From NCBI GenBank assembly GCA_024276355.1, contig JAJRXJ010000177.1, forward strand, positions 7-64,006: 64,000 nucleotides of DNA, written 5' to 3'. The notes under the pieces were generated by a model. It was not told the origin of the DNA and searched no databases. It saw nothing but the letters and a program-made list of their open reading frames with translations. Position numbers and translations under genes: made by a program. Each line of letters begins with the position of its first letter. The first letter of the stretch is position 1. The DNA comes from Actinomycetes bacterium (GTDB lineage Bacteria > Actinomycetota > Acidimicrobiia > Acidimicrobiales > Aldehydirespiratoraceae). Shown piece after piece: positions 7,922 to 60,498 of the stretch.

Positions 7922-8680
7922 ATGAGGCATCCGTACTTCGAACACGACGGGCCGCTGGCGATCGCGCATCGTGGGGGTGCCGGAGACCATCCCGAGAATA
8001 CCGAGCGGGCGTTTCGACACGCCGTGGACCTCGGGTTCACCCATGTCGAGACCGACGTCCACGTGACCGCCGACGGTGTGGCGATCGCATTCCACGATGA
8101 TGTTCTCGACCGTGTCACCGATCGCACGGGCACCATTGCCGAACTTCCGTGGAGCGAAGTTCGACGGGCCCGCGTGGCCGGGACCGATGAGATATGTCGG
8201 CTCGACGAGCTGCTCGACACGTTCCCCGACACCAGGTTCAATCTCGACCCGAAACACGATGCCGCCGTGGCACCTCTGGCTGACGTGCTGCGCCGAACGG
8301 GGGCCGTGAGAAGGGTCTGCGTGGGTGCGTTCTCCGACCGACGCCTCGACCGGCTGCGGGCGATGCTCGGCGATGGGCTCTGCACGGGCACCGGCCCGAG
8401 GCGAACCCTCTTGTTGGTGCTCAACTCCCTGAGATTTCCTGTGCGACCGAAGAACGCGATGGTGGCGCAGGTGCCGGTGAGGTCCACAGGCATCACGGTC
8501 GTCACCCAACGGTTCGTCGATGCTGCCCATCGGCTCGGAATGCATGTTCACGTCTGGACGATTGACGATCCCCGCGAGATGAAGCGGCTACTCGGCCTCG
8601 GTGTCGACGGCATCATGACCGATCGGCCGGAGCTGCTCAGGGCGACCTATGAGACGTTGGGTGTATGGAATTCGGCCTGA
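7922..8680 (+). CDS. glycerophosphodiester phosphodiesterase (GDPD family)
   Basis: 'IAHRGGAGDHPENTERAF', 'VETDVHVTADGVAIAFHDD' and 'HVWTIDDP...GVDGIMTDRP' are GDPD motifs. The start is placed at ATG 7922; an in-frame TTG at 7907 is also possible. Confidence 0.85.
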   Translation: MRHPYFEHDGPLAIAHRGGAGDHPENTERAFRHAVDLGFTHVETDVHVTADGVAIAFHDDVLDRVTDRTGTIAELPWSEVRRARVAGTDEICRLDELLDTFPDTRFNLDPKHDAAVAPLADVLRRTGAVRRVCVGAFSDRRLDRLRAMLGDGLCTGTGPRRTLLLVLNSLRFPVRPKNAMVAQVPVRSTGITVVTQRFVDAAHRLGMHVHVWTIDDPREMKRLLGLGVDGIMTDRPELLRATYETLGVWNSA

Positions 8681-9411
8681 CCTGTGGGCGACTCTGTGGA
8701 AAACAAGCTGTCGCCTGGGGATCGGCGGTGGTTTTCCCAGGAATGCCTGGGGATTTCGGCATATCCTCTTGACGGCCGTGGGGATCACCGCGAGGATGCC
8801 CTTGTCGAAGCGAGAGCAGCAATTCCGAGGCTCCGATCCGGTCAGGAAGGCGAAAGCCCGACGGGCCGGTGAAGACCGAAGGAGAGCGGTTCGAACGGAG
8901 ACACGGCTTAGTCAGGCTGACAATCTTCGGAGCGTCAGCGGGTCGATCGGAGATACGGCGAGGCATCGCCAATCCGACCGGAGCCGGCTCTCACGAGGGG
9001 CCGTCCGGGAGGTGCGGAGAGGTCTCACCGTCCGAGGAACCACCTGATCGCCGGTTGAGTCCCACACGGGGGCGATGCCGGTCCAGGTGAATCATTTCCC
9101 GGGCGGCACGTATCGGGTCACCGTGAGTCGAGTCATCGCCGCCGGGTGGTGAATCGGTTCGGGGTTGGCTCGGTGTTGACGGACATCGATGATCGGTTCA
9201 GGCGAGAATCGGAGAGGACGCAATCCGGTTCGAGTCAGGGTTTCATCCTCGTACGGGGGTGGCCACGAGTGCCGAAAGATCCGTCGGGATCCTTTGGCCA
9301 GGCGATCTGAGTCGATTCGAAGCCCCGAGGAGTTGACCGGTGCGAGCCGGGAGGCTAATCGGGGCTTCGTCGCGTCTGCGCCCGGATTACCTCCCCACGG
9401 TCCCACCCGGC

Positions 9412-9612
9412 CTAGTCGTCCTTGAGCGCCACCGCGTTGGCGGTCACGTTCACCTTCGGGACGTACTCGGCCGCGTCGACTTGCCGCTTCTCTCCCCCGA
9501 GCGTGTCGCGCAGCTGGGTGCGACACGCTCCACACGGGCCGTAGAAATCGTCGGTGCTGGCCGATCCGCAGCGCGGACAGGTGAACTCGATTGGGTCGAT
9601 CGTGTGGGTCAC
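9412..9612 (-). CDS. small zinc-ribbon protein, hypothetical
   Basis: The 66-aa ORF carries a CPRC...x14...CGAC four-Cys pattern. It has a GTG start and no good SD spacing. Confidence 0.45.
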   Translation of the reverse strand: MTHTIDPIEFTCPRCGSASTDDFYGPCGACRTQLRDTLGGEKRQVDAAEYVPKVNVTANAVALKDD

Positions 9613-9696
9613 TCCCCCATTCTGTCACGCCCGGACATCGTTGATCGCGACGCCGGCGCCCGAAGATAGGCTCCGCCACCTTACGGAGGCTGGTCA

Positions 9697-11151
9697 ATGT
9701 CAGATGTGTCGAGAATCGATGATTCAGAGGCTCCGATCGTCATAATCGGCGCCGGACCGGCTGGACTCACCGCCGCGTACCAACTCGGCAAGCACGACCG
9801 TCGCCCGCTCGTGATCGAAGCCGACGACGTGGTGGGAGGCATCTCTCGTACTGTCGTCCGGGACGGTTGGCGATTCGACATCGGTGGTCACCGATTCTTC
9901 ACCAAGGTCCCTCCGGTATCGGATCTCTGGCACGAGGTCCTTCCCGATGAGGACTTTCTCACCCGTCCGAGGATGAGTCGGATCTTCTACAACGGCAAGT
10001 TCTACGATTATCCCCTTAAACCCACCAACGCACTGCGGAACCTCGGGCTCATCGAGTCGATCCGTTGCGTCATGTCATACATGTGGGTGAGGGTTCGGCC
10101 GCCCAAGGACCAGTCCACCTTCGAGGGCTACACCGCGGCCCGGGTCGGGTGGCGGCTCTACCGCATCTTCTTCAAGACATACACCGAGAAGGTGTGGGGT
10201 GTCCCAGCCGACCAGATTCAGGCCGACTGGGCCGCACAACGAATCAAGAACCTCAACCTCTTCAGCGCCGTCTGGAACGCGCTCATGCCGAAACGAAACC
10301 AGAAGGACATTGCCAGCCTCATCGAGGAGTTCGAGTACCCACGCCACGGTCCGGGAATGATGTGGGAACGCTGCTCAGAGCTGGTCCAGGCCCAGGGTGG
10401 GCGAATCCTCATGAACAATCGTGTTGTGGGAATCGAACACGAAGGTGGGCGGGCGAAGGTGGTGATTACCGAGTCCGATCAAGGCACCAGGCGCATCGAC
10501 TGTTCGCAACTCGTGTCGTCCATGCCGATACCTCGCCTGGTCCAAGCCATGATCCCCTCCCCGCCGGAGGAGGTTCTCACCGCGGCCAAGGGCCTGTCCT
10601 TCCGCGATTTCCTCACGGTCGCCCTGGTTGTTCCGGAGGATGAGGCCTTTCCCGACAATTGGATCTATGTCCACTCGGCGGATGTGAAGCTCGGGCGGAT
10701 CCAGAACTTCGGGGCGTGGTCCCCGGAGATGATTCCGGAGAGGTCGATGACCTGCCTCGGACTCGAGTATTTCGTTACCGAGGGCGATGATCTCTGGACC
10801 GCAGACGACGTCGACTTGATTCAGCTGGGCATTCGCGAGCTCAAAACCCTCGGGTTGTTGGACCCGTCCCACATCGGTGAGGGCTACGTGGTGAGGATGC
10901 CCAAGGCCTACCCCATGTACGATTCGTGCTACAAGGAGAACGTCGACATCCTCCGTGGATGGTTGTCGCAGAACGCAACCAATGTCCACCCGATCGGCCG
11001 AAACGGTATGCACCGCTACAACAACCAGGATCACTCGATGTACACGGCCATGCTCACTGTCGACAACATGGTGAGCGGAACCAGCCACGATGTCTGGCAG
11101 GTAAACGTCGACGCCGAGTACCACGAAGAGCTGTCCAGGTCGGAATTGTGA
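9697..11151 (+). CDS. NAD(P)/FAD-dependent oxidoreductase (amine-oxidase / UDP-galactopyranose-mutase-like fold)
   Basis: The N-terminal Rossmann motif is 'IVIIGAGPAGLTAAYQL...VIEADDVVGGISRT'. GGAGG lies upstream of ATG 9697. The gene is coupled by a 4-nt overlap to the GT2 gene downstream. Confidence 0.8.
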   Translation: MSDVSRIDDSEAPIVIIGAGPAGLTAAYQLGKHDRRPLVIEADDVVGGISRTVVRDGWRFDIGGHRFFTKVPPVSDLWHEVLPDEDFLTRPRMSRIFYNGKFYDYPLKPTNALRNLGLIESIRCVMSYMWVRVRPPKDQSTFEGYTAARVGWRLYRIFFKTYTEKVWGVPADQIQADWAAQRIKNLNLFSAVWNALMPKRNQKDIASLIEEFEYPRHGPGMMWERCSELVQAQGGRILMNNRVVGIEHEGGRAKVVITESDQGTRRIDCSQLVSSMPIPRLVQAMIPSPPEEVLTAAKGLSFRDFLTVALVVPEDEAFPDNWIYVHSADVKLGRIQNFGAWSPEMIPERSMTCLGLEYFVTEGDDLWTADDVDLIQLGIRELKTLGLLDPSHIGEGYVVRMPKAYPMYDSCYKENVDILRGWLSQNATNVHPIGRNGMHRYNNQDHSMYTAMLTVDNMVSGTSHDVWQVNVDAEYHEELSRSEL

Positions 11152-11882
11152 ATTCGGTTGCGGTCATCCCCACCATTGTGGTGATACCCGCATTCAACGA
11201 GAGCGCGACAATCCCCGCGGTGCTGCACAGCCTCCGCGCGGTTGTCCCGGAGCTCGACCTCGTAGTTGTCGACGACGGATCCACCGATGGCACATCCGAC
11301 GTGGTCAGGGAGCTCGGTGTGCGCTGCCTGACCCTTCCGTTCAACCTGGGCATCGGAGGTGCTCTTCGCACGGGCTACCGGTACGCGGCCGAATCCGGGT
11401 ACCAACGGGCCGTGCAATTCGACGCCGATGGCCAACACCGGGCCGACCAGATCGGGTTGCTCATCGAGGCACTCGATTCCGGTGCTGCCCTGGCAGTTGG
11501 CACCAGATTCGCAGGGAAAGGCGGCTACGAGGTCGGGTTCGGCCGACGGATGGCCATGCGCTCGCTCCGCCTCGGAGTGAGAATGCTGTGTGGGCGCTGG
11601 TTCAGCGACACCTCTTCCGGATTCCGAGCCGTCAACCGAGAACTGCTCGAGGTCTTCGCCACCGAATATCCCGTCGATTACATGGACTCGGTCGAGACCC
11701 TCGTCGCGGCCAGCAGAGCCGGTTACCGAATAGTCGAGGTCCCCGTGTCCATGGAAGAACGGTCGGGCGGCGTACCCTCGCAGCGCCCGCTGAGGCTGCT
11801 CTACCACTACGCCCGCCTGGTGGTGGCTCTGGTTGGCTCATCGAGACACGCGTTCCCACCGGCCGGCCGACAACGGGGCTGA
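11148..11882 (+). CDS. family 2 glycosyltransferase (polyprenol-phosphate sugar synthase-like)
   Basis: GTG 11148 overlaps the upstream TGA (GTGA). 'IVVIPAFNESATIPAVLHSL...LVVVDDGSTDGT' is the GT2 DxD-type N-terminus, and 'QFDADGQH' is also present. Confidence 0.8.
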   Translation: MNSVAVIPTIVVIPAFNESATIPAVLHSLRAVVPELDLVVVDDGSTDGTSDVVRELGVRCLTLPFNLGIGGALRTGYRYAAESGYQRAVQFDADGQHRADQIGLLIEALDSGAALAVGTRFAGKGGYEVGFGRRMAMRSLRLGVRMLCGRWFSDTSSGFRAVNRELLEVFATEYPVDYMDSVETLVAASRAGYRIVEVPVSMEERSGGVPSQRPLRLLYHYARLVVALVGSSRHAFPPAGRQRG

Positions 11883-11989
11883 TCCCCTGGGTCGCGTCCG
11901 CTCCGTCACATGGGCCGATCGTCTCAAGTTGGCGGGTCGAAGTGCCGATTGAGCACCACTGGCCGACCATCTCGAGGGGGTCGACGACT

Positions 11990-13705
11990 GTGCTCCGTCG
12001 TGACCACGACACTTCCCCAATCACATTGGACCAAGAACTCGACTCGCAGCACCGCGCCGGAGTTGATCTTGCTTGGTTGGTGGTCGCCAGCGTCTCGCTC
12101 GTCGCGGCGGCGATCTGGCTGTCGGTGCCAGATCGTGTTCTCTCGTCGATCGACGGCTCGGGCCAGCTGAACTTCAATGGCCTCATCGCCCTGATCGTGG
12201 TCGTACCCGTGGCCGCCACCGTCTTCGCCACACGGCGCTACCGGGATGCCGTCGGGGCGCAGCGCGAGTTGGCCCACCTGTCGGATCACGACGCCCTCAC
12301 CCGTCTTCCAAATCGGCGAAACCTGAATCTCGCACTGCCTCGCGCGCTCGCCCACTCTGGTCGGATCAATTCGAAGACCGGCGTCCTGTTTGTTGATCTC
12401 GACGGGTTCAAGGCTGTGAACGACACCTACGGCCACGAGGTGGGCGACCAGTTGATGATTGCGGTTGCCGCCAGACTCCGGGGACTGTGTGGTGACATGC
12501 GTTGGGTGGCCCGCTTCGGTGGCGATGAATTCGTGATCATCGACGCATTGCCGGCCTCCCAGCAGTCGTGCGTCCGGTTTGCGGAGTCGGTGGTGACCAG
12601 CCTGTCCGAGCCGTTCAGCATCGGTGAGGATCGAATATCCATTTCAGCCAGTATCGGCGTGGCCTTCGGCGGCCTCGGTGACAGTCCCGAGTCCCTGGTG
12701 AAGGATGCCGATCTCGCCATGTACGACGCCAAGGACGGCGAGACGAGGGTGTCGGTGTTCAGACCGGAGATGAGGGTTTCGCTGACACCCGCGACGGTGG
12801 CATCCCGTCTGGAACGGGCCCTGTCGAATGGCGAGTTTCGACTCATGTACCAGCCCATGGTGGTTCTCGACTCCGGTGCCGTGGTCGGGGTGGAGGCGCT
12901 GCTCAGATGGGATGATCCCGACCGGGGGGTGGTCGACGCCGTCGAGTTCATGCCGGCGCTGGAGGCAACCGGCCTGATTGTTCCCGTCGGCCGATGGGTG
13001 ATGAGCGAGGTCTGTGCCAGCGCCATGCGGTGGGCGGAGATGATGCCCCCGGGTGTTCCGGCGTTGAGGGTCTCGATGAACGTGTCGCCGCGGGAATTGT
13101 CGCAGAGCGACTTCGTCGATGAGTTGAGGGCGGCCCTCGACCTCAGCGGTGTCGACCCCAGAACGATCTACCTCGAGGCCAACGAAACGTCCCTCACATC
13201 CGACTCACGGAAGGCGTGGACCTCTCTCACCGGCGCTCGAAAACTTGGCGTCGGGCTGGCCATCGACGACTTCGGCCGGGGCTTTCTGTCGTTGGGCCAT
13301 CTCCGGAACTTCGACTTCAGTCTCGTGAAGCTCGACGGCCCCTTCGCGGCGATGATCTCGCGGGACGGGCCGGAGTCGGTGATGCTTAGGAAGGTCATCG
13401 ATCTCGCCGGAGAACTGGGCATACCCGTTCTTGCCGAGGGACTCAATGACGAGTTGCTCCTCGGCCGGCTCAGAGAAGCCGGATGTCAGCTCGGTCAGGG
13501 GTTTGTCATATCCGACCCGCTCAACTCCGACACGGTGGACCACTTGATCGAAGCCGGTTTGGCGGGGGTGTCCCTACCAAAGGTCGGCACACGCGACGCG
13601 GGCCATGTTTCGTCAGTCGGCGGAGCCGCTGAGGTCGACTCTGCGACCGTGGTGTTGCCAACGCTCAGACGAACGATGGTGGCCGAGCAAGAAGCTGCCA
13701 TCTGA
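11990..13705 (+). CDS. membrane-anchored diguanylate cyclase/phosphodiesterase (GGDEF-EAL)
   Basis: Two N-terminal TM helices are followed by 'DALTRLPNRR', 'FVDLDGFKAVNDTYGHEVGD' and 'RFGGDEFVII' (intact GGDEF). Then come 'GVEALLRW', 'DDFGRGFLSL', 'LKLD' and 'EGLNDE' (intact EAL). The start is approximate (in-frame GTG at 11990). Confidence 0.85.
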   Translation: MLRRDHDTSPITLDQELDSQHRAGVDLAWLVVASVSLVAAAIWLSVPDRVLSSIDGSGQLNFNGLIALIVVVPVAATVFATRRYRDAVGAQRELAHLSDHDALTRLPNRRNLNLALPRALAHSGRINSKTGVLFVDLDGFKAVNDTYGHEVGDQLMIAVAARLRGLCGDMRWVARFGGDEFVIIDALPASQQSCVRFAESVVTSLSEPFSIGEDRISISASIGVAFGGLGDSPESLVKDADLAMYDAKDGETRVSVFRPEMRVSLTPATVASRLERALSNGEFRLMYQPMVVLDSGAVVGVEALLRWDDPDRGVVDAVEFMPALEATGLIVPVGRWVMSEVCASAMRWAEMMPPGVPALRVSMNVSPRELSQSDFVDELRAALDLSGVDPRTIYLEANETSLTSDSRKAWTSLTGARKLGVGLAIDDFGRGFLSLGHLRNFDFSLVKLDGPFAAMISRDGPESVMLRKVIDLAGELGIPVLAEGLNDELLLGRLREAGCQLGQGFVISDPLNSDTVDHLIEAGLAGVSLPKVGTRDAGHVSSVGGAAEVDSATVVLPTLRRTMVAEQEAAI

Positions 13706-13710
13706 GTCGA

Positions 13711-14631
13711 CTAGGACCCATCAGCTCGGATCATGCTCGATGGCGGCGGTCCGAAGTGTCGAGACATGAAGTGGTGTATGGCCGTGAGCCGCGCCCTCGG
13801 TGACCAGTGAAGGCCGCGTCTGTGGGGCTTGAGGACGCCGATGGGAATCTCCACCAGCGCGATTGTGGCCCGGACGATCACATTCCAACGGCCGTAGTGT
13901 TCCCGCAGCATCAACAGGGTGTTGCGTAGTTGCAGATAGGCCACCATCTCTACCGAGGAGCTCATACCCGGGTTGTCGACGATGGCACCCCGGACCACCC
14001 CGCACCCCCACCCGAACTCCGCCGCTCTGAGGCCCAGGTCGGCCTCTTCGCAGTAGGCGAAATAGCGCTCGTCGAACAAACCGATCTCAAGAAGGCAGTC
14101 GCGTCGGGCCATCATCAGGGTTCCATGGGGATAGTCGGATCTGTCGAATCCAACCTCGGAGTCCGGGTGGGCGTCGATTGACCCGAGGAAAGGATCGATC
14201 ACCGGGCGAAATCCGTCTCCGACGTCGGCGCTGACGAGCCCCACCCCGGGGTTGGTCGGCATCTCATCCAGGATCTTCGAGATCGTGTCGACGGCCGGAC
14301 GGGCATCGTGGGGAGTGACGGCTACCCATGGCGTGTCGAGCTGTCGGAGCCAGCGTCGCAGGCCGACGTTGGCGCCGGGCCCGAATCCCAGATTGGCACC
14401 GGTGCGGATGACCTCGACCGATGGAGGAAGCCTCTGCAGGGCGCCGGCGGCCGCCGGGCCGGACCCATTGTCGATGACGATGACCCCATCGGTGTCGGCT
14501 TGGGCCATGTACGCAGCGACGGTCGACGGGAGCGAATCGGGCCGATTCCGGTGGACCACCACCACGGTCACTCTTCTGTCGAGTACGGAGGTCGGTGGTT
14601 GCTGGGCTGTCGGCGTGGACGCGGCATTCAT
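13711..14631 (-). CDS. family 2 glycosyltransferase
   Basis: 'VTVVVVHRNRPDSLPSTV...VIVIDNGS' and 'NLGFGPGANVG' match rhamnosyl/galactosyl-type GT2 motifs, and 'YCEEADLGLR' is also present. The start is ATG 14631. Confidence 0.8.
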   Translation of the reverse strand: MNAASTPTAQQPPTSVLDRRVTVVVVHRNRPDSLPSTVAAYMAQADTDGVIVIDNGSGPAAAGALQRLPPSVEVIRTGANLGFGPGANVGLRRWLRQLDTPWVAVTPHDARPAVDTISKILDEMPTNPGVGLVSADVGDGFRPVIDPFLGSIDAHPDSEVGFDRSDYPHGTLMMARRDCLLEIGLFDERYFAYCEEADLGLRAAEFGWGCGVVRGAIVDNPGMSSSVEMVAYLQLRNTLLMLREHYGRWNVIVRATIALVEIPIGVLKPHRRGLHWSPRARLTAIHHFMSRHFGPPPSSMIRADGS

Positions 14632-14773
14632 GTCGGGCGCATCCTCGCCCGGATGACCGCAGCCTGCAACCCGGCGGGCACGAGAGCGTGGCAATCAGCG
14701 GGATAGCCTTGGCCCGTCGCGCCCGTCGGTGATCCCTGATCGGGTCAACACCACGAACCCTGGGAAACCGCCC

Positions 14774-15946
14774 ATGTCAGACAACTCCCGAGAAACGACC
14801 GTTGGCAAGATAGGTGACCTCGCGGCCGAGGCCGGGCTTCGACGAATCCACATTCTCGCCTGGCGGGACCTCGCCGACGTGGAGGCCGGCGGATCAGAGG
14901 TTCACGCCTCGAAGATCGCGGCACTGTGGGCCCGGGCCGGCATCGAGGTGAGCATGCGCACCTCCTACGCGCAGGGATCTCTTCCCGAGTCGGTGCGTGA
15001 CGGCTACCGCGTGGTTCGCAAGGCCGGCAGGTATCTCGTGTTTCCACGGGCAGTGGCATCCGAGATATCGGGGCGGAGCGGCAAACGTGATGGCTTGGTG
15101 GAGATATGGAACGGCGTGCCGTTCTTCTCTCCGATCTGGGCCAGGGGCCCGCGGGTCACCTGGCTCCATCACGTTCATGAGGCCATGTGGCCGATGGTCC
15201 TGCCCCCGAAGCTGGCGCGTGCGGGCCAGATCCTCGAGAGGCACATCGCTCCCCCGTTCTACCGTTCCACGAAGGTCATAACCCTTTCGGAGTCGTCGCG
15301 GGCCACAATCATCGACCGAATGGGGTTACGGGCCACGAATATCAGCGTCGTCCCGCCGGGAATTGACCCCATGTTCGAGCCGGGCGGAGAGAAGTCAGCG
15401 ACTCCCAAGATCGTGGCCGTCGGGCGACTGATGCCATCCAAGTCCTTCGACACCCTGATCGACGCGGTTCGGCGAGTGCGCGACAAGGTTCCGGCCACCC
15501 TGGTGATAGTGGGTGAGGGCTACGAACGAGAGGCCCTCGAACGGCGGGTGCGTGAACTCGACGCCGAGGAATGGTGCGAGCTTCCAGGGCGGATCAGCGC
15601 TTCCGACCTGGTCGATCACTACCGGTCGGCATGGGTGCTCGCGAGCGCCTCTCAGAGCGAGGGCTGGGGCATGACCATCACCGAGGCCGCGGCCTGTGGG
15701 ACTCCCGCGGTTGCCACCAGAATCGCAGGCCACGTCGATGCCATCGACGACGGTGTCACAGGAATGCTGGTGTACGGCGGGTCTGAACTGGCTGATGCGC
15801 TGACCCGGGTTCTGGACGACATCGATCTTCGGTCGCGAATGGCCGACGCGGCGACGCGGCGGGCCCGGACATTCACTTGGGAACGCACCGCCCACGACAC
15901 ACTTTCGGTGTTGGCCCAAGAGGCGATCCGGCATCGGCGTCGGTGA
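14774..15946 (+). CDS. GT-B glycosyltransferase (GT4-like)
   Basis: 'GGSEVHA' sits near the N-terminus. The C-terminal block 'ASQSEGWGMTITEAAACGTPAVATRIAGHVDAIDDGVTG' matches the E-x7-E GT4 signature region. Confidence 0.85.
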   Translation: MSDNSRETTVGKIGDLAAEAGLRRIHILAWRDLADVEAGGSEVHASKIAALWARAGIEVSMRTSYAQGSLPESVRDGYRVVRKAGRYLVFPRAVASEISGRSGKRDGLVEIWNGVPFFSPIWARGPRVTWLHHVHEAMWPMVLPPKLARAGQILERHIAPPFYRSTKVITLSESSRATIIDRMGLRATNISVVPPGIDPMFEPGGEKSATPKIVAVGRLMPSKSFDTLIDAVRRVRDKVPATLVIVGEGYEREALERRVRELDAEEWCELPGRISASDLVDHYRSAWVLASASQSEGWGMTITEAAACGTPAVATRIAGHVDAIDDGVTGMLVYGGSELADALTRVLDDIDLRSRMADAATRRARTFTWERTAHDTLSVLAQEAIRHRRR

Positions 15947-15947
15947 T

Positions 15948-18900
15948 TTGAGGCCCGGGGTCAGAGCGCTGAGAGGCGTCACATCCGTTGAGAACCGTCC
16001 CCGGATGGTCGTGGTCATCGCCGCGCTGATCGCATTCCTACCGATAGTCGCGTCGAGCCCGGGGCGGGTCGGCGCCGACACCAAGACATACCTGTACCTC
16101 GATCCCGCGAAGTGGATGTCCAGGTCGATATCGCTCTGGGACAGTGACGTCGCCCTCGGAACCGTCACCCACCAGACCATCGGCTACCTGTGGCCGATGG
16201 GCCCGTTCTACTGGGTGCTCGACCAGTTGGGCAGCCCGGACTGGCTTGCCCAGCGGCTGTGGTTGGCGACCATTCTCTTCATGGCCGGCCTCGGGGTGAA
16301 GTTCCTGCTTGACACACTGGAGTGGCAGGGGCCGGGCCTGCTGGTGGCGATGCTTGCGTACGAGCTCAGTCCCTACCTCCTCGACTATTCAGCCCGAATC
16401 TCGGTGATCCTGTTGCCGTTTGCCGGCCTGCCGTGGTTGATAGCGCTGACCATCCGGTCGGCTCGCACGGGCGGGTGGCGGCACCCGGCACTGTTCGCTT
16501 TGGTTGCCGTCACCATAGGGAGCGTCAACGCCACATCACTGCTTCTCGTGGGTATGGCACCGTTCCTTTGGCTGGTCCACGTCACCTTCGTGGAACGGAC
16601 CGTCCCGCTGGCACAGTCAGCGAGGGCGGCCCTTCGAATCGGCGTGATGAGCGTGGGCGTGTCTCTTTGGTGGATGGCCGGGTTGGTGCTCCAGGGCGGT
16701 TACAGCCTGCCGGTCACCCGGTACACCGAGACCTATCGCGTGGTGGCTGAGGCTTCGACGGCTCCGGAGATCTTGAGGGGATTGGGATACTGGTTCTTCT
16801 ACGGAAACGACCAGTACGGCCCCTGGATCAAGCCCAGCGTCGACTACACCCAGGGGGTGTGGCTGCTCTTCGTCAGTTTCGGCCTGGTGGTCCTCGCCTT
16901 GCTGGCCGCAGCGCTGGTTCGGTGGCGACATCGTTCGTATTTCCTCCTCCTTCTGGTTGTCGGGTCGCTGGTGGGTGTCGGGGCCCACCCGTTTCATTCT
17001 CCATCGTTTCTCGGCCGAGTCTTCAGCGATTTCACGCGAACCGATGCCGGATTGGCGCTGAGGTCCACCCCTCGTGCCGTTCCACTGGTGGTCTTGTCGA
17101 CGGCGGTGTTGCTCGGCTCACTTCTCAACGCCATTCATCGCCGGTGGCCCGGTTGGGCGCGGCCGTTTGGTGCGTTGGTGCTGGCTGCGGTGGTCCTCAA
17201 CAACCCGGCGATGTGGAAGGTTCGGATGATCGAGGAGCATCTGAATCGACCTGAGAACATCCCCGAGTACTGGCTACAGGCCATCGACCGGTTGGATCAG
17301 CTTCCCCACAGCAGCCGAGTTCTCGAAGTTCCGGGCTCGGACTTTGCGTCGTACAGGTGGGGAAACACCGTCGACCCGATCACTCCGGGACTGATGGATC
17401 GCCCCTACGTGGCCCGTGAGCTGGTCCCGTTCGGCTCGGCCCAGTCGGCGGCCCTGCTGACCGCCTTCGATCGTCGGTTCCAGGAGAATTCCCTCGACCC
17501 ACGATCCGTGGTGCCGATCACCCGCCTGATGTCCGTCGGCGATGTGGTCCACCGGGCGGATCTGACATTCGAGCGGTTCCGTACCCCCAGGCCGGTGCCG
17601 ACCGGCGCCTTGTTGAACGGCGTCCCGGGATTGGACCCACCCGAGACATTTGGTGAGCCTGTTCCCAACACCCCCATCCCCGAATTGCCGATGCTCGACG
17701 AGGTATTCCTCGGAACGGATCCGTCCACCCCTGATCCCTCACCGGTCACCCGCTACGGGGTACCGGATCCTCTCCCGATCGTGCGGACCGGGTCGACGCA
17801 ATCCCCGGTGATCATCGTCGGTGATGCCGAGGGGCTGGTTGATGCCGCCGGAGCAGGTCTCATCGACCCGGATCGGCCGGTGTTCTATGCCGCGGATCTC
17901 CTGCCGAACGAGGCCGCATACGACCTCGCGCTGGCCGAACCCGCCTCGATCGTGATCACCGACAGCAATCGGAAGCGGGCGAGGCGGTGGGGAACCCTGA
18001 GAGAGAACGTCGGCTACACCGAGCGGTCCGGGGAAACCCCGCTCACCTTCGATCCCACCGACAATCGGCTCGACAAGTTCCCTGATCTGGCATCGGTGGA
18101 AGGTCTTGACATCGACGACACCAAGACCGTCAGTGTCCATGTCGGCGAGATGACCGCTTCGGCGTCGGCCTACGGAAATCCGGTCACCTACACCAACGAC
18201 GACCGGGCCGTGTTCGCGGTCGACGGTGACCCCACCACCGCATGGGTGGTCGCGGCCTTCGCCGAGCCGAGAGGCGAATTCCTGCGTCTCTCCTATCCCG
18301 TTTCCAAATCCATCGATCAGATCACACTTACCCAGACGCTTGCCGACACGAACCGGCACGTCACGGAAGTGGCCGTTGTGGCCGACGGTCAGGAGGTAGG
18401 GCGGTATCGACTCACGGCCGAGTCGCGTGAGCCCGCCGGGCAGACGCTCCACCTGCCCGCCACGACGTCCGCGTCGAACTGGGACATCGTCGTCACCGAT
18501 ACCGACCTCTCGCGCCGGGCCACCTACCCGGGAGTCTCGCCGGTCGGTTTTGCCGAGGTCCGAATGGGCCGGGACCCCGCCCCGGTCATCGAGCAGATTC
18601 GTACGCCAGTCGCCTTCATCGGTTCCCTCGGCGCCGATCTCCAACGCCACGACCTCTCGGTGGTGTTGACACGCGAGCGATCCGACCCGGCCGAGCCGGT
18701 CAGATCCGACCCGGAGAGGTCGATGCTTCGGGTCGTTCCGATCCCGGAAACGCGTACCTTCACCGTCGAGGGGTCAGCGCGACTCTCCGCCTACGCATCC
18801 GAGCAGACAATCGACTCTCTCCTCGGAAGGTCGTCCGACCACAACGGCGTACTCCTGCAAGCGTGGTCCTCCGGTCGACTTCCCGGCGATCTCGGAAGCG

Positions 18901-20309
18901 CCGCTTCGTTTGCGTTCGACGACGATTCGTCCACAGCATGGACTGGAGTCTTCGGACCACAGGCTGGCCAGTGGATCTCACTGAGAAGCGGGCAACCAAT
19001 GGATGTTCGGGGCATCGACATGGCGATCGTGACCGACTCATTCCATTCGGTGCCCACCATCTTGAACGTCACCGCTGATGGCGTCGATCTCGGTAACTAC
19101 GCAACCGGGTTGAAGAATGTCACGCAGCCGCGTGGCACCATCGCGACCATCAGGATTCCGGTTGAGGTTTCAACCGCGCGGGAGATCACCATCACAGCTG
19201 TCGAGGTGGACGAGCGCCTCACCATCGACTGGTACAGCCATGTCAATCACGCCATGCCCATCTCGATAGCCGAGATCGGCACCGCTCCCGGTGTGGCCTT
19301 CTCCCCGCCTTCCGGCGTTGAGACGGGGTGCCGATCCGACCTGATCTCGATCTCCGGAGATCCGGTTCCGGTCCGGGTGGTTGGTTCAGCTGCCGACGCC
19401 GTGGCCAGAAAGCGACTCGACCTGATCGGTTGTTCGGTCGCAACTGCCGGCAGGGAAATGGTGGTGTCGACCTCACGAGGGATGGACACCGGAATCGATC
19501 TCGATCAGGTGGTGCTCAGGAGCCCACGAGACATCCCGCAACCACCACCTCCGACACCGCCCGACGTGGTCCGGCACTCCGACACCGCGTTCACCGTGTC
19601 CGTCCCCGCCTCACCGTTGTCACGGTGGTTGATTCTCGGTCAGAGTCGCAACAACGGCTGGCATGCTTCCATCGACGGCGTCGATCTGGGCCCCCCGATC
19701 ACGATCGATGGCTTCGCCAACGGATGGTTGATTCCCGGAGGCGACGATGTCAAGGTCGAGCTGAGGTGGACCCCACAGGATCTCGTCCGCTGGACCTTGG
19801 GAATCTCGCTTCTGACCGCTCTGGTGGCGATCGTTCTGGTGTGGAAAGGTCGGCCACATCAGTTCGAGGTGTCGCCGGATCGTGGGGCCGGCATCGACGG
19901 TGGGCCGCTTCCCGAGATCGGGCCGTTGCCGCTCTTGCAACCCTCGAGAGGCTCGGCACGTGCCTGGCGAAGCGCCATCCCAGCAGCGATCGGGGTCGGG
20001 CTGTTCAGCCTTGTCAACCTGCCACAGTGGCCCCTCGCCGCGGTGGTTGTCGGCCTCATTGTGCTGGCCGGGCTTCGACACCCCAGAGTCGGCGCACTGG
20101 CGGCCGCCCTATCGGCAATGTCGCTCGGCTTGGCGTCCCTCTACATCATGATCCAGCAACGACGCTTCCGGTACCCACCGGTCTTTGTCTGGCCGCAACA
20201 GTTCGAGCGGGTTCACATTCTGGGAGTGCTCGCCATCTTGTTGATCGCCGCTGAGTATGTGCGATCGGCCACCGCGCCTTCGGGCGGCGCCGACGATGAG
20301 GGAGCCTAG
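15948..20309 (+). CDS. large GT-C membrane glycosyltransferase, AftD/DUF3367-like, with discoidin (F5/8 type C) modules
   Basis: The protein is 1453 aa. 'DTKTYLYLDPAKWMSRSISLWDSDVALGTVTHQTIGYLWPMGPFYWV' resembles the N-terminus of mycobacterial AftD-type alpha-(1->3)-arabinofuranosyltransferases. About 12 N-terminal TM helices and about 4 C-terminal TM helices flank a large extracytoplasmic region containing 'AVDGDPTTAWV' and 'AFDDDSSTAWT' (discoidin/CBM-like). The start is TTG 15948 or ATG 16005. Confidence 0.75.
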   Translation: MRPGVRALRGVTSVENRPRMVVVIAALIAFLPIVASSPGRVGADTKTYLYLDPAKWMSRSISLWDSDVALGTVTHQTIGYLWPMGPFYWVLDQLGSPDWLAQRLWLATILFMAGLGVKFLLDTLEWQGPGLLVAMLAYELSPYLLDYSARISVILLPFAGLPWLIALTIRSARTGGWRHPALFALVAVTIGSVNATSLLLVGMAPFLWLVHVTFVERTVPLAQSARAALRIGVMSVGVSLWWMAGLVLQGGYSLPVTRYTETYRVVAEASTAPEILRGLGYWFFYGNDQYGPWIKPSVDYTQGVWLLFVSFGLVVLALLAAALVRWRHRSYFLLLLVVGSLVGVGAHPFHSPSFLGRVFSDFTRTDAGLALRSTPRAVPLVVLSTAVLLGSLLNAIHRRWPGWARPFGALVLAAVVLNNPAMWKVRMIEEHLNRPENIPEYWLQAIDRLDQLPHSSRVLEVPGSDFASYRWGNTVDPITPGLMDRPYVARELVPFGSAQSAALLTAFDRRFQENSLDPRSVVPITRLMSVGDVVHRADLTFERFRTPRPVPTGALLNGVPGLDPPETFGEPVPNTPIPELPMLDEVFLGTDPSTPDPSPVTRYGVPDPLPIVRTGSTQSPVIIVGDAEGLVDAAGAGLIDPDRPVFYAADLLPNEAAYDLALAEPASIVITDSNRKRARRWGTLRENVGYTERSGETPLTFDPTDNRLDKFPDLASVEGLDIDDTKTVSVHVGEMTASASAYGNPVTYTNDDRAVFAVDGDPTTAWVVAAFAEPRGEFLRLSYPVSKSIDQITLTQTLADTNRHVTEVAVVADGQEVGRYRLTAESREPAGQTLHLPATTSASNWDIVVTDTDLSRRATYPGVSPVGFAEVRMGRDPAPVIEQIRTPVAFIGSLGADLQRHDLSVVLTRERSDPAEPVRSDPERSMLRVVPIPETRTFTVEGSARLSAYASEQTIDSLLGRSSDHNGVLLQAWSSGRLPGDLGSAASFAFDDDSSTAWTGVFGPQAGQWISLRSGQPMDVRGIDMAIVTDSFHSVPTILNVTADGVDLGNYATGLKNVTQPRGTIATIRIPVEVSTAREITITAVEVDERLTIDWYSHVNHAMPISIAEIGTAPGVAFSPPSGVETGCRSDLISISGDPVPVRVVGSAADAVARKRLDLIGCSVATAGREMVVSTSRGMDTGIDLDQVVLRSPRDIPQPPPPTPPDVVRHSDTAFTVSVPASPLSRWLILGQSRNNGWHASIDGVDLGPPITIDGFANGWLIPGGDDVKVELRWTPQDLVRWTLGISLLTALVAIVLVWKGRPHQFEVSPDRGAGIDGGPLPEIGPLPLLQPSRGSARAWRSAIPAAIGVGLFSLVNLPQWPLAAVVVGLIVLAGLRHPRVGALAAALSAMSLGLASLYIMIQQRRFRYPPVFVWPQQFERVHILGVLAILLIAAEYVRSATAPSGGADDEGA

Positions 20310-20890
20310 GCGTTGGCCAGAGCGAGGGCGTGCTGAACCAACTCCAGCAGAGTTGCCTTGGTGGCGCCCCGGTCGCGTGCATCGGTGACCACCATCGGGG
20401 TGGTGCCCGGCACGGCCAATGCCTCGCGCACCTCATCGAGCGTGTATGGCATCTTCCCGAAGAAGGCGTTGACCGCCACCACGAACGGGATTCCCGAGTT
20501 CTCGAAATAGTCGATCGCCGGGAAGCAGTCCTCGAGCCTGGATGTGTCGACCAGCACCACAGCACCAATTGCCCCGCGGACAAGGTCGTCCCACATGAAG
20601 TGAAAGCGATCCTGTCCCGGTGTTCCGAACAGGTAGAGAATCAGGTCATCACCGAGCGTGATCCGCCCGAAGTCCATCGCCACGGTGGTGGTGGACTTGG
20701 CGGCCACGCCGGCGATGTCGACACCTTCACTTTTGCTCGTGAGCGAAGCCTCGGTGGTCAGCGGTTCGATCTCGCTGATCGAACCGACGAAGGTCGTCTT
20801 GCCGACCGCGTAACCGCCGGCAACCACGATCTTCACCGGAATCGGTACCGGCTTCTCGCCCCGTGTCTTCTCAGATCGCTTGAAGACCAT
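20306..20890 (-). CDS. small Ras/MglA-like GTPase (conservon CvnD-like)
   Basis: The P-loop is 'KIVVAGGYAVGKTTF', followed by 'LFGTPGQDRF' (DxxG) and 'VAVNAF' (NKxD-like). It is the last gene of a four-gene overlapped operon. Confidence 0.85.
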   Translation of the reverse strand: MVFKRSEKTRGEKPVPIPVKIVVAGGYAVGKTTFVGSISEIEPLTTEASLTSKSEGVDIAGVAAKSTTTVAMDFGRITLGDDLILYLFGTPGQDRFHFMWDDLVRGAIGAVVLVDTSRLEDCFPAIDYFENSGIPFVVAVNAFFGKMPYTLDEVREALAVPGTTPMVVTDARDRGATKATLLELVQHALALANA

Positions 20891-21239
20891 GGAGAACCCT
20901 TTCGAGGAGACGCTGATCGGGCCGGACGGCCGGGTCGGATCCGGTGGACACGCCCCGGTGCGTGTTGAGGAAACCTTCGGTGACCATGTCTCCGACCAAT
21001 ACCCGGGCCACGCCGAGGGGCATGGAGAGTCGGGCCGATATCTCGACGATCGAGATCGGTGACTCCGCCAGATCGGCGATCGGGAGCAGTTGTGTCACCA
21101 TTCGGTCGCGTGCCGCGCTCCCCCGGTCGGTGAGGACCACGATGGTCTCGAGCGCCAGTTCGGTGGTGGAACGCACGCGTCCTCCGGTGAGCGCATACGG
21201 CCTCACACGGAGGCGGTCGATCCCGGGATCGTCGCTCAT
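20871..21239 (-). CDS. DUF742 protein (conservon CvnC-like)
   Basis: 'VRPYALTGGRVRS...LETIV' and the HTH-like 'SIVEISARLSMPLGVARVLVGDMVTEGFL' are present. ATG 21239 overlaps the upstream stop (ATGA). The long Arg-rich N-terminal extension in the ORF track (to 21704) is rejected. Confidence 0.75.
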   Translation of the reverse strand: MSDDPGIDRLRVRPYALTGGRVRSTTELALETIVVLTDRGSAARDRMVTQLLPIADLAESPISIVEISARLSMPLGVARVLVGDMVTEGFLNTHRGVSTGSDPAVRPDQRLLERVLHGLQAI

Positions 21240-21670
21240 CGCGGGAGGGTGCCCTGCAGTTCGGCCCGAAGTGACGGAGTGAGAATCGGGCCGGCCTTTT
21301 CGACCAGGACGGCCATCTCGTATCCGACCAGTCCCACATCGCAGTTCGCATCGGCCACGACGGCCAGTGCCGACCCATCGCTGATCCCAGTGACGAAGAG
21401 GAAGGCGTGCTCCATCTCCACGATCACTTCGTTGACCCGGCCCCCGCCGAAGCGGCCGGCAGCCCCGTACGCCAGACCGATCAGACCTGAGGCCACAGCG
21501 GCAAAGCGATCGGCTGAGTCGCGGTCGAGCCCGCCGGACATGGCCATCGGTAGACCATCGGAGGAGAGGACCACCGCCTCGGACACCCCGGGAACGTGGT
21601 CGACGAAGTTGCTTACGAGCCAATTGACGTTGCTTGCGGCCGAGCTCATTTGTGGCATGGTGATCCTCAA
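21236..21670 (-). CDS. Roadblock/LC7 domain protein (conservon CvnB-like)
   Basis: The 144-aa protein contains 'VPGVSEAVVLSSDGLPMA' and 'FLFVTGISDGSALAVVADANCDVGLVGYEM', typical of Roadblock/LC7/MglB proteins. Confidence 0.8.
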   Translation of the reverse strand: MRITMPQMSSAASNVNWLVSNFVDHVPGVSEAVVLSSDGLPMAMSGGLDRDSADRFAAVASGLIGLAYGAAGRFGGGRVNEVIVEMEHAFLFVTGISDGSALAVVADANCDVGLVGYEMAVLVEKAGPILTPSLRAELQGTLPR

Positions 21671-24198: not shown

Positions 24199-24315
24199 TC
24201 CAACGCACCCTCTGGTAGACCTCGCGGTGTCAACCGCGTCACGTCTTTCAGGTCGGCGCATCGCCCCTTATCTTTAGATTTCGGCCCGGGGTGCAGCGTC
24301 GGTGGGCCGGACCCG

Positions 24316-57132: not shown

Positions 57133-57261
57133 GCAGCACAAACCAATGGTCGAGCGACCACCCGCTTCCCGGGCACGATACCCACCGACACCGACTCTGT
57201 GGTGGCATTGGCCACGCGCGCGTCTCATCCGACGATTCTCGTGGTGGACTGTGTGCTGCCC

Positions 57262-58308
57262 ATGACGAATCCGCCACCAGACCCGCGTTCGTTTTCGGTC
57301 TCAGCCCGCTCCGCCACCACTCGGCATGGAACCAAGGTGGCCAAGGCCCAGCGGACCCCGTCGAAGACCAGTTGGAGACGCTGGTTGGTGCGGGTCGTGG
57401 GGTTGCTGACGATCGCCGCACTGGGTGTGGTCGTTGTCATCTCGTTGGCGGCATGGTCCTCTTGGCGAGGCGTGGATCGTGTCGAGCTGTCGGCGGTGAT
57501 GGCCCGGTCATCGTCGGGTACGAACTACCTCATCGTCGGCACCGACTCCCGCGAGGGAATCAGCGCGGATCAGCCCAACGCGGGGGCGATCATCGGATCG
57601 AAGGTTTCCGGTGAGCGCACCGACTCGATCGCCGTTCTCCACACAGGCGATGGTGGAGCCCAGCTCCTTGCGATCCCCCGGGATCTCTATCTTCACCTCG
57701 ACGGAGGTTCCACCAACAGGGTCAACGCAGCCTTCTACTTCGGTGGACCCGAATCCTTGGTTCGCACCATCCAGACCGAGCTCGGAATACGTGTCGACCA
57801 CTACCTGCAGGTCGACCTGGCCGGTTTCCTCGGCTTGGTCGACGCCCTCGGCGGGGTCACCCTCGACATCCCGAATCCGGCGTACGACCGCGGCTCGGGC
57901 TTGAACATCGAGACATCCGGCTCTGTCCACATGGATGGCGATACTGCCCTGGCTTACGTGAGGGCCCGGCACTACGTGGAGATCATCGACGGAAAGCACG
58001 TGTCGGACCCGACATCTGATCTGGGACGGGTCAAGCGACAGCAACAGTTTCTGGCCGCTGTCTTCGCCAAGATGGGGAAGACCAAGAACCCCTTCACCCT
58101 GCTCGGGGTCGTCAGGGGTGTCAGCTCCAACGTAAAGGTCGACGATGCCATGAGCTTCGTCGATGCCGCCCGCCTGGGTCTGACCCTTCGCGGTCTCCAG
58201 CCCGCCACCGCAACGCTTCCCACACGGCCGTTCACCACGGACTCCGGCGCTCAGGTGCTCCTCTTGAACCGCGATGAGGCTGAACCGATGCTTGCCGCGT
58301 TTCGCTGA
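57262..58308 (+). CDS. LytR-CpsA-Psr (LCP) family cell-wall glycopolymer ligase
   Basis: An N-terminal TM helix is followed by 'YLIVGTDSREG', 'RTDSIAVLH', 'LAIPRDLYL' and 'HYLQVDLAGFLGLVDALGGVTLDI'. Confidence 0.85.
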   Translation: MTNPPPDPRSFSVSARSATTRHGTKVAKAQRTPSKTSWRRWLVRVVGLLTIAALGVVVVISLAAWSSWRGVDRVELSAVMARSSSGTNYLIVGTDSREGISADQPNAGAIIGSKVSGERTDSIAVLHTGDGGAQLLAIPRDLYLHLDGGSTNRVNAAFYFGGPESLVRTIQTELGIRVDHYLQVDLAGFLGLVDALGGVTLDIPNPAYDRGSGLNIETSGSVHMDGDTALAYVRARHYVEIIDGKHVSDPTSDLGRVKRQQQFLAAVFAKMGKTKNPFTLLGVVRGVSSNVKVDDAMSFVDAARLGLTLRGLQPATATLPTRPFTTDSGAQVLLLNRDEAEPMLAAFR

Positions 58309-60106: not shown

Positions 60107-60498
60107 TCATCGCCGCGGCCATCGTGCTTTCCCCGATCGTCCACGATCCGCGCCACGACTCCTACCCACTGTCCACCTATCCCATGTTCGCGCCCGACCG
60201 CGGCGCGCTACTCACCATCGACACCGTTGTCAGGGTCGACTCATCGGGTGTCGTCCACCGACTCGACCCCAACACCATTTCCGGGACCGACGAGATAGTC
60301 ACCGCGTCCGTTGTGGCTGTCAAGGCCATCCAGAGGGGCGAGGCCGATCTGCTCTGTCGTGAGGTGGCCGACAGGATCGGAGACCCCGACTCGACTGTCG
60401 AGGTGCGATCCGAGCAGGTCAACACCATCGACGTCGTTGACCATCACGCAGACCCGATCTCGGTAACCATCTGGGCAGAGTGCAGGTTCGGCGAATGA
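60076..60498 (+). CDS. small secreted/anchored hypothetical protein
   Basis: The 140-aa protein has an N-terminal hydrophobic segment 'LAPLIAAAIVLSPIV'. Its stop overlaps the next start (ATGA). Confidence 0.5.
   Translation: MPRAARPLAPLIAAAIVLSPIVHDPRHDSYPLSTYPMFAPDRGALLTIDTVVRVDSSGVVHRLDPNTISGTDEIVTASVVAVKAIQRGEADLLCREVADRIGDPDSTVEVRSEQVNTIDVVDHHADPISVTIWAECRFGE

Follow-up and report, generated by a model that had tools for sequence, protein, structure and literature searches.

A cluster of glycosyltransferase genes occupies positions 9697 to 20309 of a 64,000-nucleotide stretch of DNA (contig JAJRXJ010000177.1 of assembly GCA_024276355.1; hereafter the window, meaning the whole stretch at its full length). 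The G+C content of the window is 62-66%, and the close homologues of its proteins all come from Acidimicrobiales or Acidimicrobiia metagenome-assembled genomes (MAGs); the window itself belongs to an Acidimicrobiales MAG. Read 5' to 3', the cluster consists of a flavoenzyme resembling UDP-galactopyranose mutases (UGMs), a first family 2 glycosyltransferase (GT2a), a membrane GGDEF-EAL protein, a second family 2 glycosyltransferase on the opposite strand (GT2b), a family 4 glycosyltransferase (GT4) and a 1453-aa membrane glycosyltransferase of the GT-C fold that is related to mycobacterial AftD. An earlier reading made from the letters alone (the sequence-only reading) had drawn attention to this region, and every open reading frame (ORF) that it listed was found at, or a few codons from, the position it gave. 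The genes are described below one enzyme at a time, followed by their conservation across the Acidimicrobiales, and we interpret them, with confidence slightly above even, as an envelope-glycan locus of this order.

The GT-C enzyme (15948-20309, +; 1453 aa, or 1434 aa from the later start used by NCBI) matches the Pfam family GT-C_AftD (PF11847, formerly DUF3367) with 315.7 bits against a cut-off of 26, over profile positions 6-652 of 661, and it contains the N-terminal motif that had been quoted as AftD-like. Pfam span and hydropathy place its catalytic super-domain at residues 33-696 (16044-18035, +), with about ten transmembrane (TM) helices between residues 20 and 396. Extracytoplasmic carbohydrate-binding modules (CBMs) follow at 18168-19205 (+), namely a CBM_AftD domain at residues 741-874 (1.1e-8) and a discoidin (F5/8 type C) domain at residues 985-1086 (F5_F8_type_C, 1.2e-7), accompanied by a match to NCBIfam NADase_discoid (4e-8), and hydropathy outlines a C-terminal bundle of about four helices at residues 1280-1442 (19785-20273, +). 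An N-terminal multi-TM and C-terminal TM topology has been described for AftD homologues (bioRxiv 10.1101/2019.12.22.885152). Compared with the AftD of M. abscessus (6W98), the single sequence scores 114 bits in phmmer (3e-32, about 21% identity) and a profile built from 12 clade members 188 bits (E 1.4e-54), the latter being collinear with AftD over the GT-C domain, the CBM and the C-terminal region, where profile columns 980-1360 align with AftD residues 964-1343. Foldseek on a predicted model also ranked 6W98 first (2e-11), ahead of OST/PglB (about 2e-3) and, far lower, EmbB; this model, which has a predicted local distance difference test score (pLDDT) of 60 and active-site loops below 50, served for ranking fold matches and not for residue geometry. 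AftD is the sole strong match among solved structures by sequence and by fold, in keeping with the resemblance proposed earlier.

Resemblance is not orthology, since at least 150 representatives of the enzyme's own clade score above 500 bits against it while AftD of M. abscessus scores 114, and on this sequence evidence the protein is a member of the AftD-like family that belongs to a very large separate clade, rather than an AftD orthologue. The GT-C_AftD family comprises 3350 representatives at 50% identity, 1326 of which reach E<=1e-30, and a search started from a representative with 38% identity (P0369) retrieved nothing but more proteins of Acidimicrobiales; a literature search on DUF3367 gave nothing useful. 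Five residues are essential in M. abscessus AftD, K39, D41, E251, K361 and D474 (bioRxiv 10.1101/2019.12.22.885152). Three of them have identical counterparts here (K46, E261 and D476, for K39, E251 and D474), K361 corresponds to R376, and D41 to Y48, so that four of the five are kept or conservatively replaced. The fifth position is Tyr in 325 of the 340 Acidimicrobiales homologues, and an Asp four residues further on (D52) is found in 313 of the 340. The clade motif reads D-T-K-x-Y-L-Y-L-D-P where M. abscessus has D-T-K-L-D-L-A-I-N-P, and the acidic residue of AftD D41 thus appears to have shifted by four positions in this clade. In sum, the protein shares with AftD (Rv0236c) its family, its N-terminal multi-TM GT-C domain, its extracytoplasmic CBM region and its C-terminal TM bundle, but differs in its setting, with a UGM-like mutase, GT2 and GT4 enzymes as neighbours, no genes for decaprenyl-phospho-arabinose (DPA) synthesis, no acyl carrier protein or TmaT partner evident in the window, and a host class that is non-mycolate and for which arabinan is not reported.

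The flavoenzyme (9697-11151, +; 484 aa; Pfam Amino_oxidase and NAD_binding_8) falls in NCBIfam PRK07208.1-4 with 768 bits, and a literature search on PRK07208 returned nothing useful. Its best phmmer matches in the PDB are the UGMs of A. fumigatus (AfUGM, 2e-27) and T. cruzi (TcUGM, 7e-16), with bacterial UGMs weaker, and it does not reach the bacterial Glf model TIGR00031 (31 bits, cut-off 304). An AlphaFold2 model (pLDDT 78) superposes over its full length on AfUGM and TcUGM with TM-scores of 0.78-0.83; the top 34 Foldseek matches of this model are all AfUGM or TcUGM, with TM-scores of 0.77-0.83 and E-values down to 7e-29, and protoporphyrinogen oxidases come next in the fold ranking (TM-scores 0.70-0.74). 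In a HMMER alignment, in which the chain numbering is offset by +3, the AfUGM residues kept are the G62-H63 loop, F66, Y104, F158, Y162, W167, R182, W315, Y317, R327, R447, Y453 and N457. The catalytic and diphosphate-binding residues of AfUGM lie at GGH 63-65, R182, R334, R435, Y441 and N443 of the window protein and are all identical, and the UGM residues conserved in it are invariant among 23 homologues. Eukaryotic UGMs (A. fumigatus 3UKA/3UTE, T. cruzi 4DSG) and the flavoenzyme therefore have in common the full-length fold (TM-scores 0.78-0.83), the residues of the flavin-N5 chemistry and the diphosphate-binding Arg and Tyr residues, but identity is only about 22%, the context is bacterial, the contacts made by N163, Q107 and N207 are changed, and nucleotide or sugar specificity may differ. 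Sequence and model agree in presenting the protein as a probable flavin-dependent nucleotide-sugar pyranose/furanose mutase, homologous to eukaryote-type UGMs. The idea that it is an FAD oxidoreductase remodelling a lipid-linked sugar, in the manner of DprE1, does not survive this comparison, in which sequence, fold and active-site residues all point to a UGM-type mutase.

The start codon of the GT2a gene (11148-11882, +; 244 aa, soluble; Pfam Glycos_transf_2) is a GTG that overlaps the TGA stop of the flavoenzyme gene by 4 bp (GTGA), an arrangement of translational coupling. Among NCBIfam models, GT2a matches best PpgS, with 99.4 bits and therefore below the cut-off of 370; its other top matches among families and PDB entries are AglJ, a dolichyl-phosphate hexose transferase, ArnC and the dolichyl-phosphate mannose synthase of P. 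furiosus (5MLZ, 1.4e-12, residues 10-227). The protein carries a DDGS motif and, in FDADGQH, the DAD-x-Q motif. As all informative matches are to polyprenyl-phosphate sugar synthases, GT2a is by its sequence a member of the DPM1/ArnC/PpgS/GacI class, and the polyprenol-phosphate-sugar-synthase character first ascribed to it is borne out. GT2b (13711-14694; about 300-327 aa; Pfam Glycos_transf_2, 2.8e-9) was also rightly located, but it is encoded on the minus strand, which the sequence-only reading had not said; its NCBIfam matches to MftF, GlfT1 and a rhamnosyltransferase are weak and all far under their cut-offs, and it has no match among PDB sequences. GT4, whose gene ends at 15946 and starts at 14729 or 14774 (+), is a retaining, nucleotide-sugar-dependent enzyme of the GT-B type (Pfam Glycos_transf_1 and Glyco_transf_4), and its best PDB match is MshA of C. 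glutamicum (1e-22), over the C-terminal half only.

A mutase gene translationally coupled to a glycosyltransferase gene in a wall-polysaccharide context is reminiscent of glf-glfT2 (Rv3809c-Rv3808c), the UGM and galactofuranosyltransferase pair of mycobacterial galactan synthesis. The likeness has its bounds, since the mutase here is eukaryote-type (PRK07208 family), GT2a is a DPM1-like protein of 244 aa and not a 637-aa polymerase, and a weak GlfT1 match (6e-7) is seen in GT2b alone. Another point of comparison is offered by GacI/GacJ/GacK/GacL of S. pyogenes and PpgS(Rv3631)/Rv3632/Rv3779 of M. tuberculosis, in which a small soluble GT2 is likewise found near a GT-C enzyme. In 12 loci related to the one in the window, a gene for a DUF2304 protein (Pfam 7e-25) lies immediately 3' of the GT2a orthologue (e.g. 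L050 3346-3786, L067 5822-6259 and L070 8289-8675), and to the same family belong GacJ and Rv3632, the proteins that bind GacI and PpgS and stimulate them (bioRxiv 10.1101/180810). Unlike these systems, the window contains no DUF2304 gene and no flippase of the GtrA, Wzx or ArnEF type (tblastn and Pfam), its GT-C enzyme is a giant compared with proteins of about 500 aa, its mutase gene is coupled to that of the GT2, and GT2a stays below the PpgS cut-off. Where the locus is fuller, GT2a and DUF2304 have one to three GT-C genes of the PMT_2 type at their sides, and three loci also have a polysaccharide deacetylase gene (L059 5003-6310 is among the examples of such fuller loci). These versions with DUF2304, PMT_2 and deacetylase genes recall PpgS-type or Arn-type aminosugar pathways. 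Two ORFs 5' of the mutase gene in the window (8649-9047, +, and 9092-9697, -; 132 and 201 aa) were considered as GtrA or DUF2304 partners and discarded, as they are arginine-rich, have neither TM segments nor Pfam matches and look spurious.

Conservation of the cluster was followed in homologous loci by a scan using one genome per species, which gave 80 loci with GT-C enzymes 42-74% identical to the query. All 80 belong to the Acidimicrobiales by contig position and sequence, including three from MAG records that are labelled as other taxa. The window proteins were mapped onto these loci and all neighbouring ORFs were clustered; gene presence was counted in the 53 loci that have both 9.5-kb flanks, and GT4 adjacency, across 79 species-level Acidimicrobiales genomes, in the 77 loci with enough flank. 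GT4 is encoded within 9.5 kb of the GT-C gene in 49 of the 53 loci, the flavoprotein in 38, GT2a in 30 and GT2b in 24, while GGDEF-EAL (11/53) and conservon GTPase (6/53) genes are rarer. The GT4 gene stands directly 5' of the GT-C gene, ending no more than 300 bp from its start, in 56 of 77 loci, and throughout the order stop and start codons at this junction usually overlap or abut. Three architectures recur, flavoprotein > GT4 > GT-C without GT2a (16 loci), flavoprotein > GT2a > GT2b(-) > GT4 > GT-C (16 loci) and flavoprotein > GT2a > GT4 > GT-C (6 loci).

Housekeeping flanks are about equally conserved in close relatives (gltD in 40/53 loci, GDPD in 31/53, as part of a PK, GDPD and gltDB synteny), and 18 loci in which this synteny is broken were for this reason examined separately. 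Fifteen of these loci retain GT4 and 14 retain GT2a; the flavoprotein is present in 4, or in 6 when judged by tblastn, and GT2b in a single one. Distant loci also provide compact operons in which the genes share one strand and their ends overlap, such as L050 (942-10411), with the order flavoprotein > GT2a > DUF2304 > GT4 > GT-C > GT2, and L067 and L070, with the order flavoprotein > AT3 > PMT_2 GT-C > GT2a > DUF2304 > GT4 > GT-C. The arrangement is beyond chance expectation. GT4, the most constant neighbour of the GT-C gene, and GT2a both accompany it robustly, the flavoprotein does so often but with less constancy, and GT2b, GGDEF-EAL and the conservon are clade-specific and variable. The core genes hence form a conserved functional cluster, as had been suspected.

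Two apparent fusions of mutase and GT4, in L085 (14665-17505, -; 946 aa) and L060 (7164-9917, +; 917 aa), are most likely indel artefacts of long-read assemblies, because the L085 protein clusters at 90% identity with separate 527-533-aa flavoproteins and 413-aa GT4s from several other, near-identical assemblies, with adjacent accession numbers. A real fusion would have favoured a route in which the nucleotide-furanose is used by GT4. A paralogous AftD-like GT-C gene (L084 10001-14479) is found elsewhere, surrounded by folate, pantothenate and NAD genes, and none of its neighbours is a glycosyltransferase gene. Its product (P0390) is 54% identical to P0369, which is itself 38% identical to the GT-C domain of the window enzyme, and this setting indicates that the order has at least two AftD-like lineages that are differently embedded.

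Genes that would complete a pathway were sought both in the window and in the surroundings of the distant loci (148 further neighbour ORFs from 25 loci, of which the recurrent families were considered, families of a single ORF not all being listed). These ORFs include methyltransferases, AT3 acyltransferases, PMT_2 GT-Cs, polysaccharide deacetylases and SGNH proteins, but neither in the window nor among the recurrent families are there genes for UbiA, DprE1/DprE2-type proteins, GtrA or Wzx, a priming phosphoglycosyltransferase or polymer export. The notion of a self-contained extracytoplasmic pathway is therefore not sustained, as flippase, priming enzyme and exporter are all missing from the window and do not recur nearby. 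A gene of the LytR-CpsA-Psr (LCP) family in the window (57199-58308, +), put forward as the ligase that would attach the polymer to the wall, has nothing to tie it to the cluster; it lies at a distance of 37 kb, where its neighbours are cell-division genes (an M23 peptidase and a DivIVA-like gene), and is absent from the flanks of related loci. As for the sugar, the whole-cell sugars of Hal317, a cultured strain of the Acidimicrobiia, are rhamnose, ribose, mannose and galactose, without arabinose (PMC12263773), and AftD homologues have been noted in orders without arabinogalactan (Tan et al., bioRxiv 10.1101/2019.12.22.885152). A role in arabinan synthesis from DPA, as for AftD, is accordingly unlikely for an enzyme that is about 21% identical to AftD, has D41 replaced and has no DPA genes nearby.

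On balance, and by a small excess of confidence, we favour the view that the cluster is a lineage-wide envelope-glycan locus of the Acidimicrobiales that acts on both faces of the membrane, mixing cytoplasmic and extracytoplasmic steps, and that involves a furanose sugar. From the classes of the enzymes and their conserved linkage, we infer that the mutase would turn a nucleotide-pyranose (in the simplest case UDP-Galp) into its furanose form; GT4, joined by GT2b where it is present, would assemble a lipid-linked acceptor from cytoplasmic nucleotide sugars; and GT2a would place one sugar on polyprenyl phosphate. A flippase encoded elsewhere would bring this lipid-phosphate-sugar to the outer face, where the AftD-like GT-C enzyme could use it to lengthen or branch a large glycan bound to its CBMs. 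The furanose might enter by either of two routes: as a nucleotide sugar used by GT4 or GT2b, or as a lipid-phosphate-furanose made by GT2a and used by the GT-C enzyme. What the locus makes is probably a wall polysaccharide or lipoglycan that contains galactose, and not an arabinan. The locus combines features of AftD, of GacI/J/L and PpgS/Rv3632/Rv3779, and of glf-glfT2, and matches none of these three systems, because it has no DPA genes, its mutase is eukaryote-type and an acidic residue of its GT-C enzyme is displaced.

Several points weigh against this picture. The mutase, found within 10 kb in just 4-6 of the 18 synteny-broken loci, is less firmly tied to the GT-C gene than GT4 or GT2a are, and many of the loci that have it fall in a clade in which PK, GDPD and gltBD are equally syntenic. 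Its substrate may not be UDP-Gal, since of the AfUGM contacts to UDP-Galp, Q107 is replaced by K and N163 by T, and N207 is not conserved. The product of GT2a may serve the adjoining PMT_2-type GT-Cs rather than the AftD-like one. The latter has Tyr at the position of AftD D41, and its structural model is of low confidence. Finally, the window and the recurrent neighbours yielded neither a flippase nor a priming enzyme or an exporter.

Within the same scheme, a more specific version would have the mutase and the coupled GT2a make a polyprenyl-phosphate-furanose (e.g. polyprenyl-P-Galf), which the AftD-like GT-C would transfer outside the membrane, providing a DPA-independent donor route fed by nucleotide sugars. 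We hold this version to be rather unlikely, and the literature searched contains no mention of a lipid-phosphate-furanose donor of this mutase and GT2a type or of a GT-C galactofuranosyltransferase. On a par with it, and likewise doubtful, is a side-chain decoration of the GacI/GacJ/GacL or PpgS/Rv3779 type, for which there is precedent (bioRxiv 10.1101/180810). GT2a would then use a common UDP-sugar to make a polyprenyl-phosphate-linked N-acetylhexosamine or hexose, the GT-C enzyme would attach single residues to a polymer of other origin, and the mutase would do no more than supply UDP-Galf to GT4 or GT2b for the backbone. The choice of PpgS as best family match of GT2a, the DUF2304 genes that follow its orthologues, the deacetylase and PMT_2 GT-C genes near it in fuller loci (with their PpgS- and Arn-type overtones) and the 16 minimal loci that dispense with GT2a all fit such a scenario. 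It is less easily squared with a 1453-aa GT-C enzyme bearing several CBMs, which looks more like a late-stage, polymer-branching enzyme than like the side-chain GT-Cs of about 500 aa, or with the failure to find backbone-synthesis genes (rhamnan type, ABC exporter) nearby. Its overlap with the scheme that we favour is large, the two differing in the furanose route alone.

We think it quite improbable that the GT-C enzyme is, as public annotations state, a true AftD orthologue, that is, a DPA-dependent alpha-(1->3)-arabinofuranosyltransferase that branches arabinan. The Pfam assignments (GT-C_AftD and CBM_AftD), the collinear architecture, AftD as sole strong solved relative and the match of K46, E261, R376 and D476 to the essential K39, E251, K361 and D474 would be expected of an orthologue, and database entries are named accordingly ('alpha-(1->3)-arabinofuranosyltransferase family protein', 'arabinofuranan 3-O-arabinosyltransferase'). 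Yet identity to AftD is about 21%, with 114 bits against the more than 500 bits of at least 150 own-clade representative clusters, and the essential D41 is Tyr in nearly the whole clade (325/340); the neighbours are a UGM-type mutase and a nucleotide-sugar-fed GT2, UbiA, DprE1 and DprE2-type genes were found neither in the window nor recurring in the neighbourhoods, and the absence of arabinose from a cultured member of the class (PMC12263773) and the occurrence of homologues in orders without arabinogalactan (Tan et al.) point the same way. It appears similarly improbable that the genes form no functional unit at all and are neighbours merely through regional synteny (PK-GDPD ... gltD-gltB), their enzymes serving unrelated glycan pathways. 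Such an explanation could draw on gltD (40/53) and GDPD (31/53) being about as conserved as the mutase (38/53), on the interruption of the cluster by the GGDEF-EAL gene and the divergent GT2b, on the poor retention of the mutase (4-6/18) and GT2b (1/18) once synteny is broken, and on the paralogue L084 amid unrelated housekeeping genes. It does not account for the order-wide adjacency of GT4 and GT-C genes with their usually overlapping or abutting stop and start codons, for the retention of GT4 (15/18) and GT2a (14/18) after the loss of flank synteny, for the compact one-strand operons of L050, L067 and L070 that unite mutase, GT2a, DUF2304, GT4 and GT-C, or for the 4-bp overlap of mutase and GT2a genes in the window.

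Two accessory features of the locus concern its possible regulation and partners. The gene between GT2a and GT2b, which the sequence-only reading had overlooked, encodes a membrane protein with two TM helices followed by GGDEF and EAL domains (Pfam 4.6e-38 and 4.4e-57), with intact GGDEF, EAL and DDFG motifs; it spans 11990-13705 (+) within an ORF of 11588-13705, its start at about 11990-12026 being deduced from a 565-aa homologue in L003. It is a clade-specific insert, and the locus may be under the control of cyclic di-GMP in the corresponding sub-clade; no PilZ-type receptor was seen. In distant Acidimicrobiales, membrane acyltransferases of the AT3 family, in some cases joined to an SGNH domain, are encoded beside or inside the operon of the AftD-like enzyme (L067 2406-3638; L070 4917-6134 and 15327-17465; L085 7054-9321). 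An AT3-SGNH gene is present in 12 loci, and Acyl_transf_3 is matched by 6 of the 148 other neighbour ORFs; the window has no AT3 gene. Mycobacterial AftD forms an essential complex with the AT3 protein TmaT (bioRxiv 10.64898/2026.07.31.741936), and by analogy the recurrent presence of AT3 genes beside the GT-C gene suggests that a pairing of the TmaT-AftD kind may predate mycolic acids, and that its substrate may be a glycan.

AftD is essential in mycobacteria and has been proposed as a drug target, and it has many homologues in bacteria that lack arabinogalactan. The present analysis indicates that, in an order of abundant and mostly uncultured Actinomycetota, the companions of an AftD-like enzyme are a GT4, a lipid-phosphate-sugar synthase and a predicted furanose-forming mutase instead of the DPA pathway. 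The label 'alpha-(1->3)-arabinofuranosyltransferase' on the GT-C proteins of Acidimicrobiales in databases is hence an over-annotation, and the main value of the locus is as a starting point for learning what AftD-like enzymes do outside the Mycobacteriales. Should the mutase and GT2a indeed make a lipid-linked furanose, this would represent a new class of glycosyl donor; were the AftD-like GT-C enzyme also to transfer it outside the membrane, the AftD-like family (3350 representative clusters) would consist of general extracytoplasmic furanosyltransferases of which mycobacterial AftD is one specialized branch, and AT3 next to the GT-C enzyme would reflect an ancient partnership, older than the mycobacterial TmaT-AftD complex.

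The GT-C gene is met at its 3' end by a convergent, conservon-like operon on the minus strand (20306-24261), encoding an ATP_bind_1 GTPase, a DUF742 protein, a Roadblock/LC7 protein and an 864-aa sensor kinase, the two stop codons overlapping by 4 nt. Beyond it lie gltD and gltB, and the remainder of the window is housekeeping in nature. An Rfam scan of the whole window gave zero matches, and a scan of the window for promoters and terminators performed no better than on shuffled sequences. In the gap of about 1 kb 5' of the mutase gene there is a 66-aa ORF (9412-9612, -) with two CxxC pairs, zinc-ribbon-like, and a 60-aa gene has been called at the same position and on the same strand in L003 (3666-3848). 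Between 39807 and 47834 lies a run of large ORFs with no or marginal Pfam matches (747 aa on the minus strand; 587, 372, 435 and 407 aa on the plus strand), which coincides with a GC-skew spike of +0.22 at 40-42 kb; the 372-aa ORF has a WxL-interacting peptidoglycan-binding domain, and the run may be an uncharacterized cluster of surface proteins. Further on (60480-62545, +), a membrane protein with an HTTM domain (vitamin-K-dependent carboxylase-like) is followed by an EcKL/APH-type kinase, both apparently unrelated to the glycan locus.

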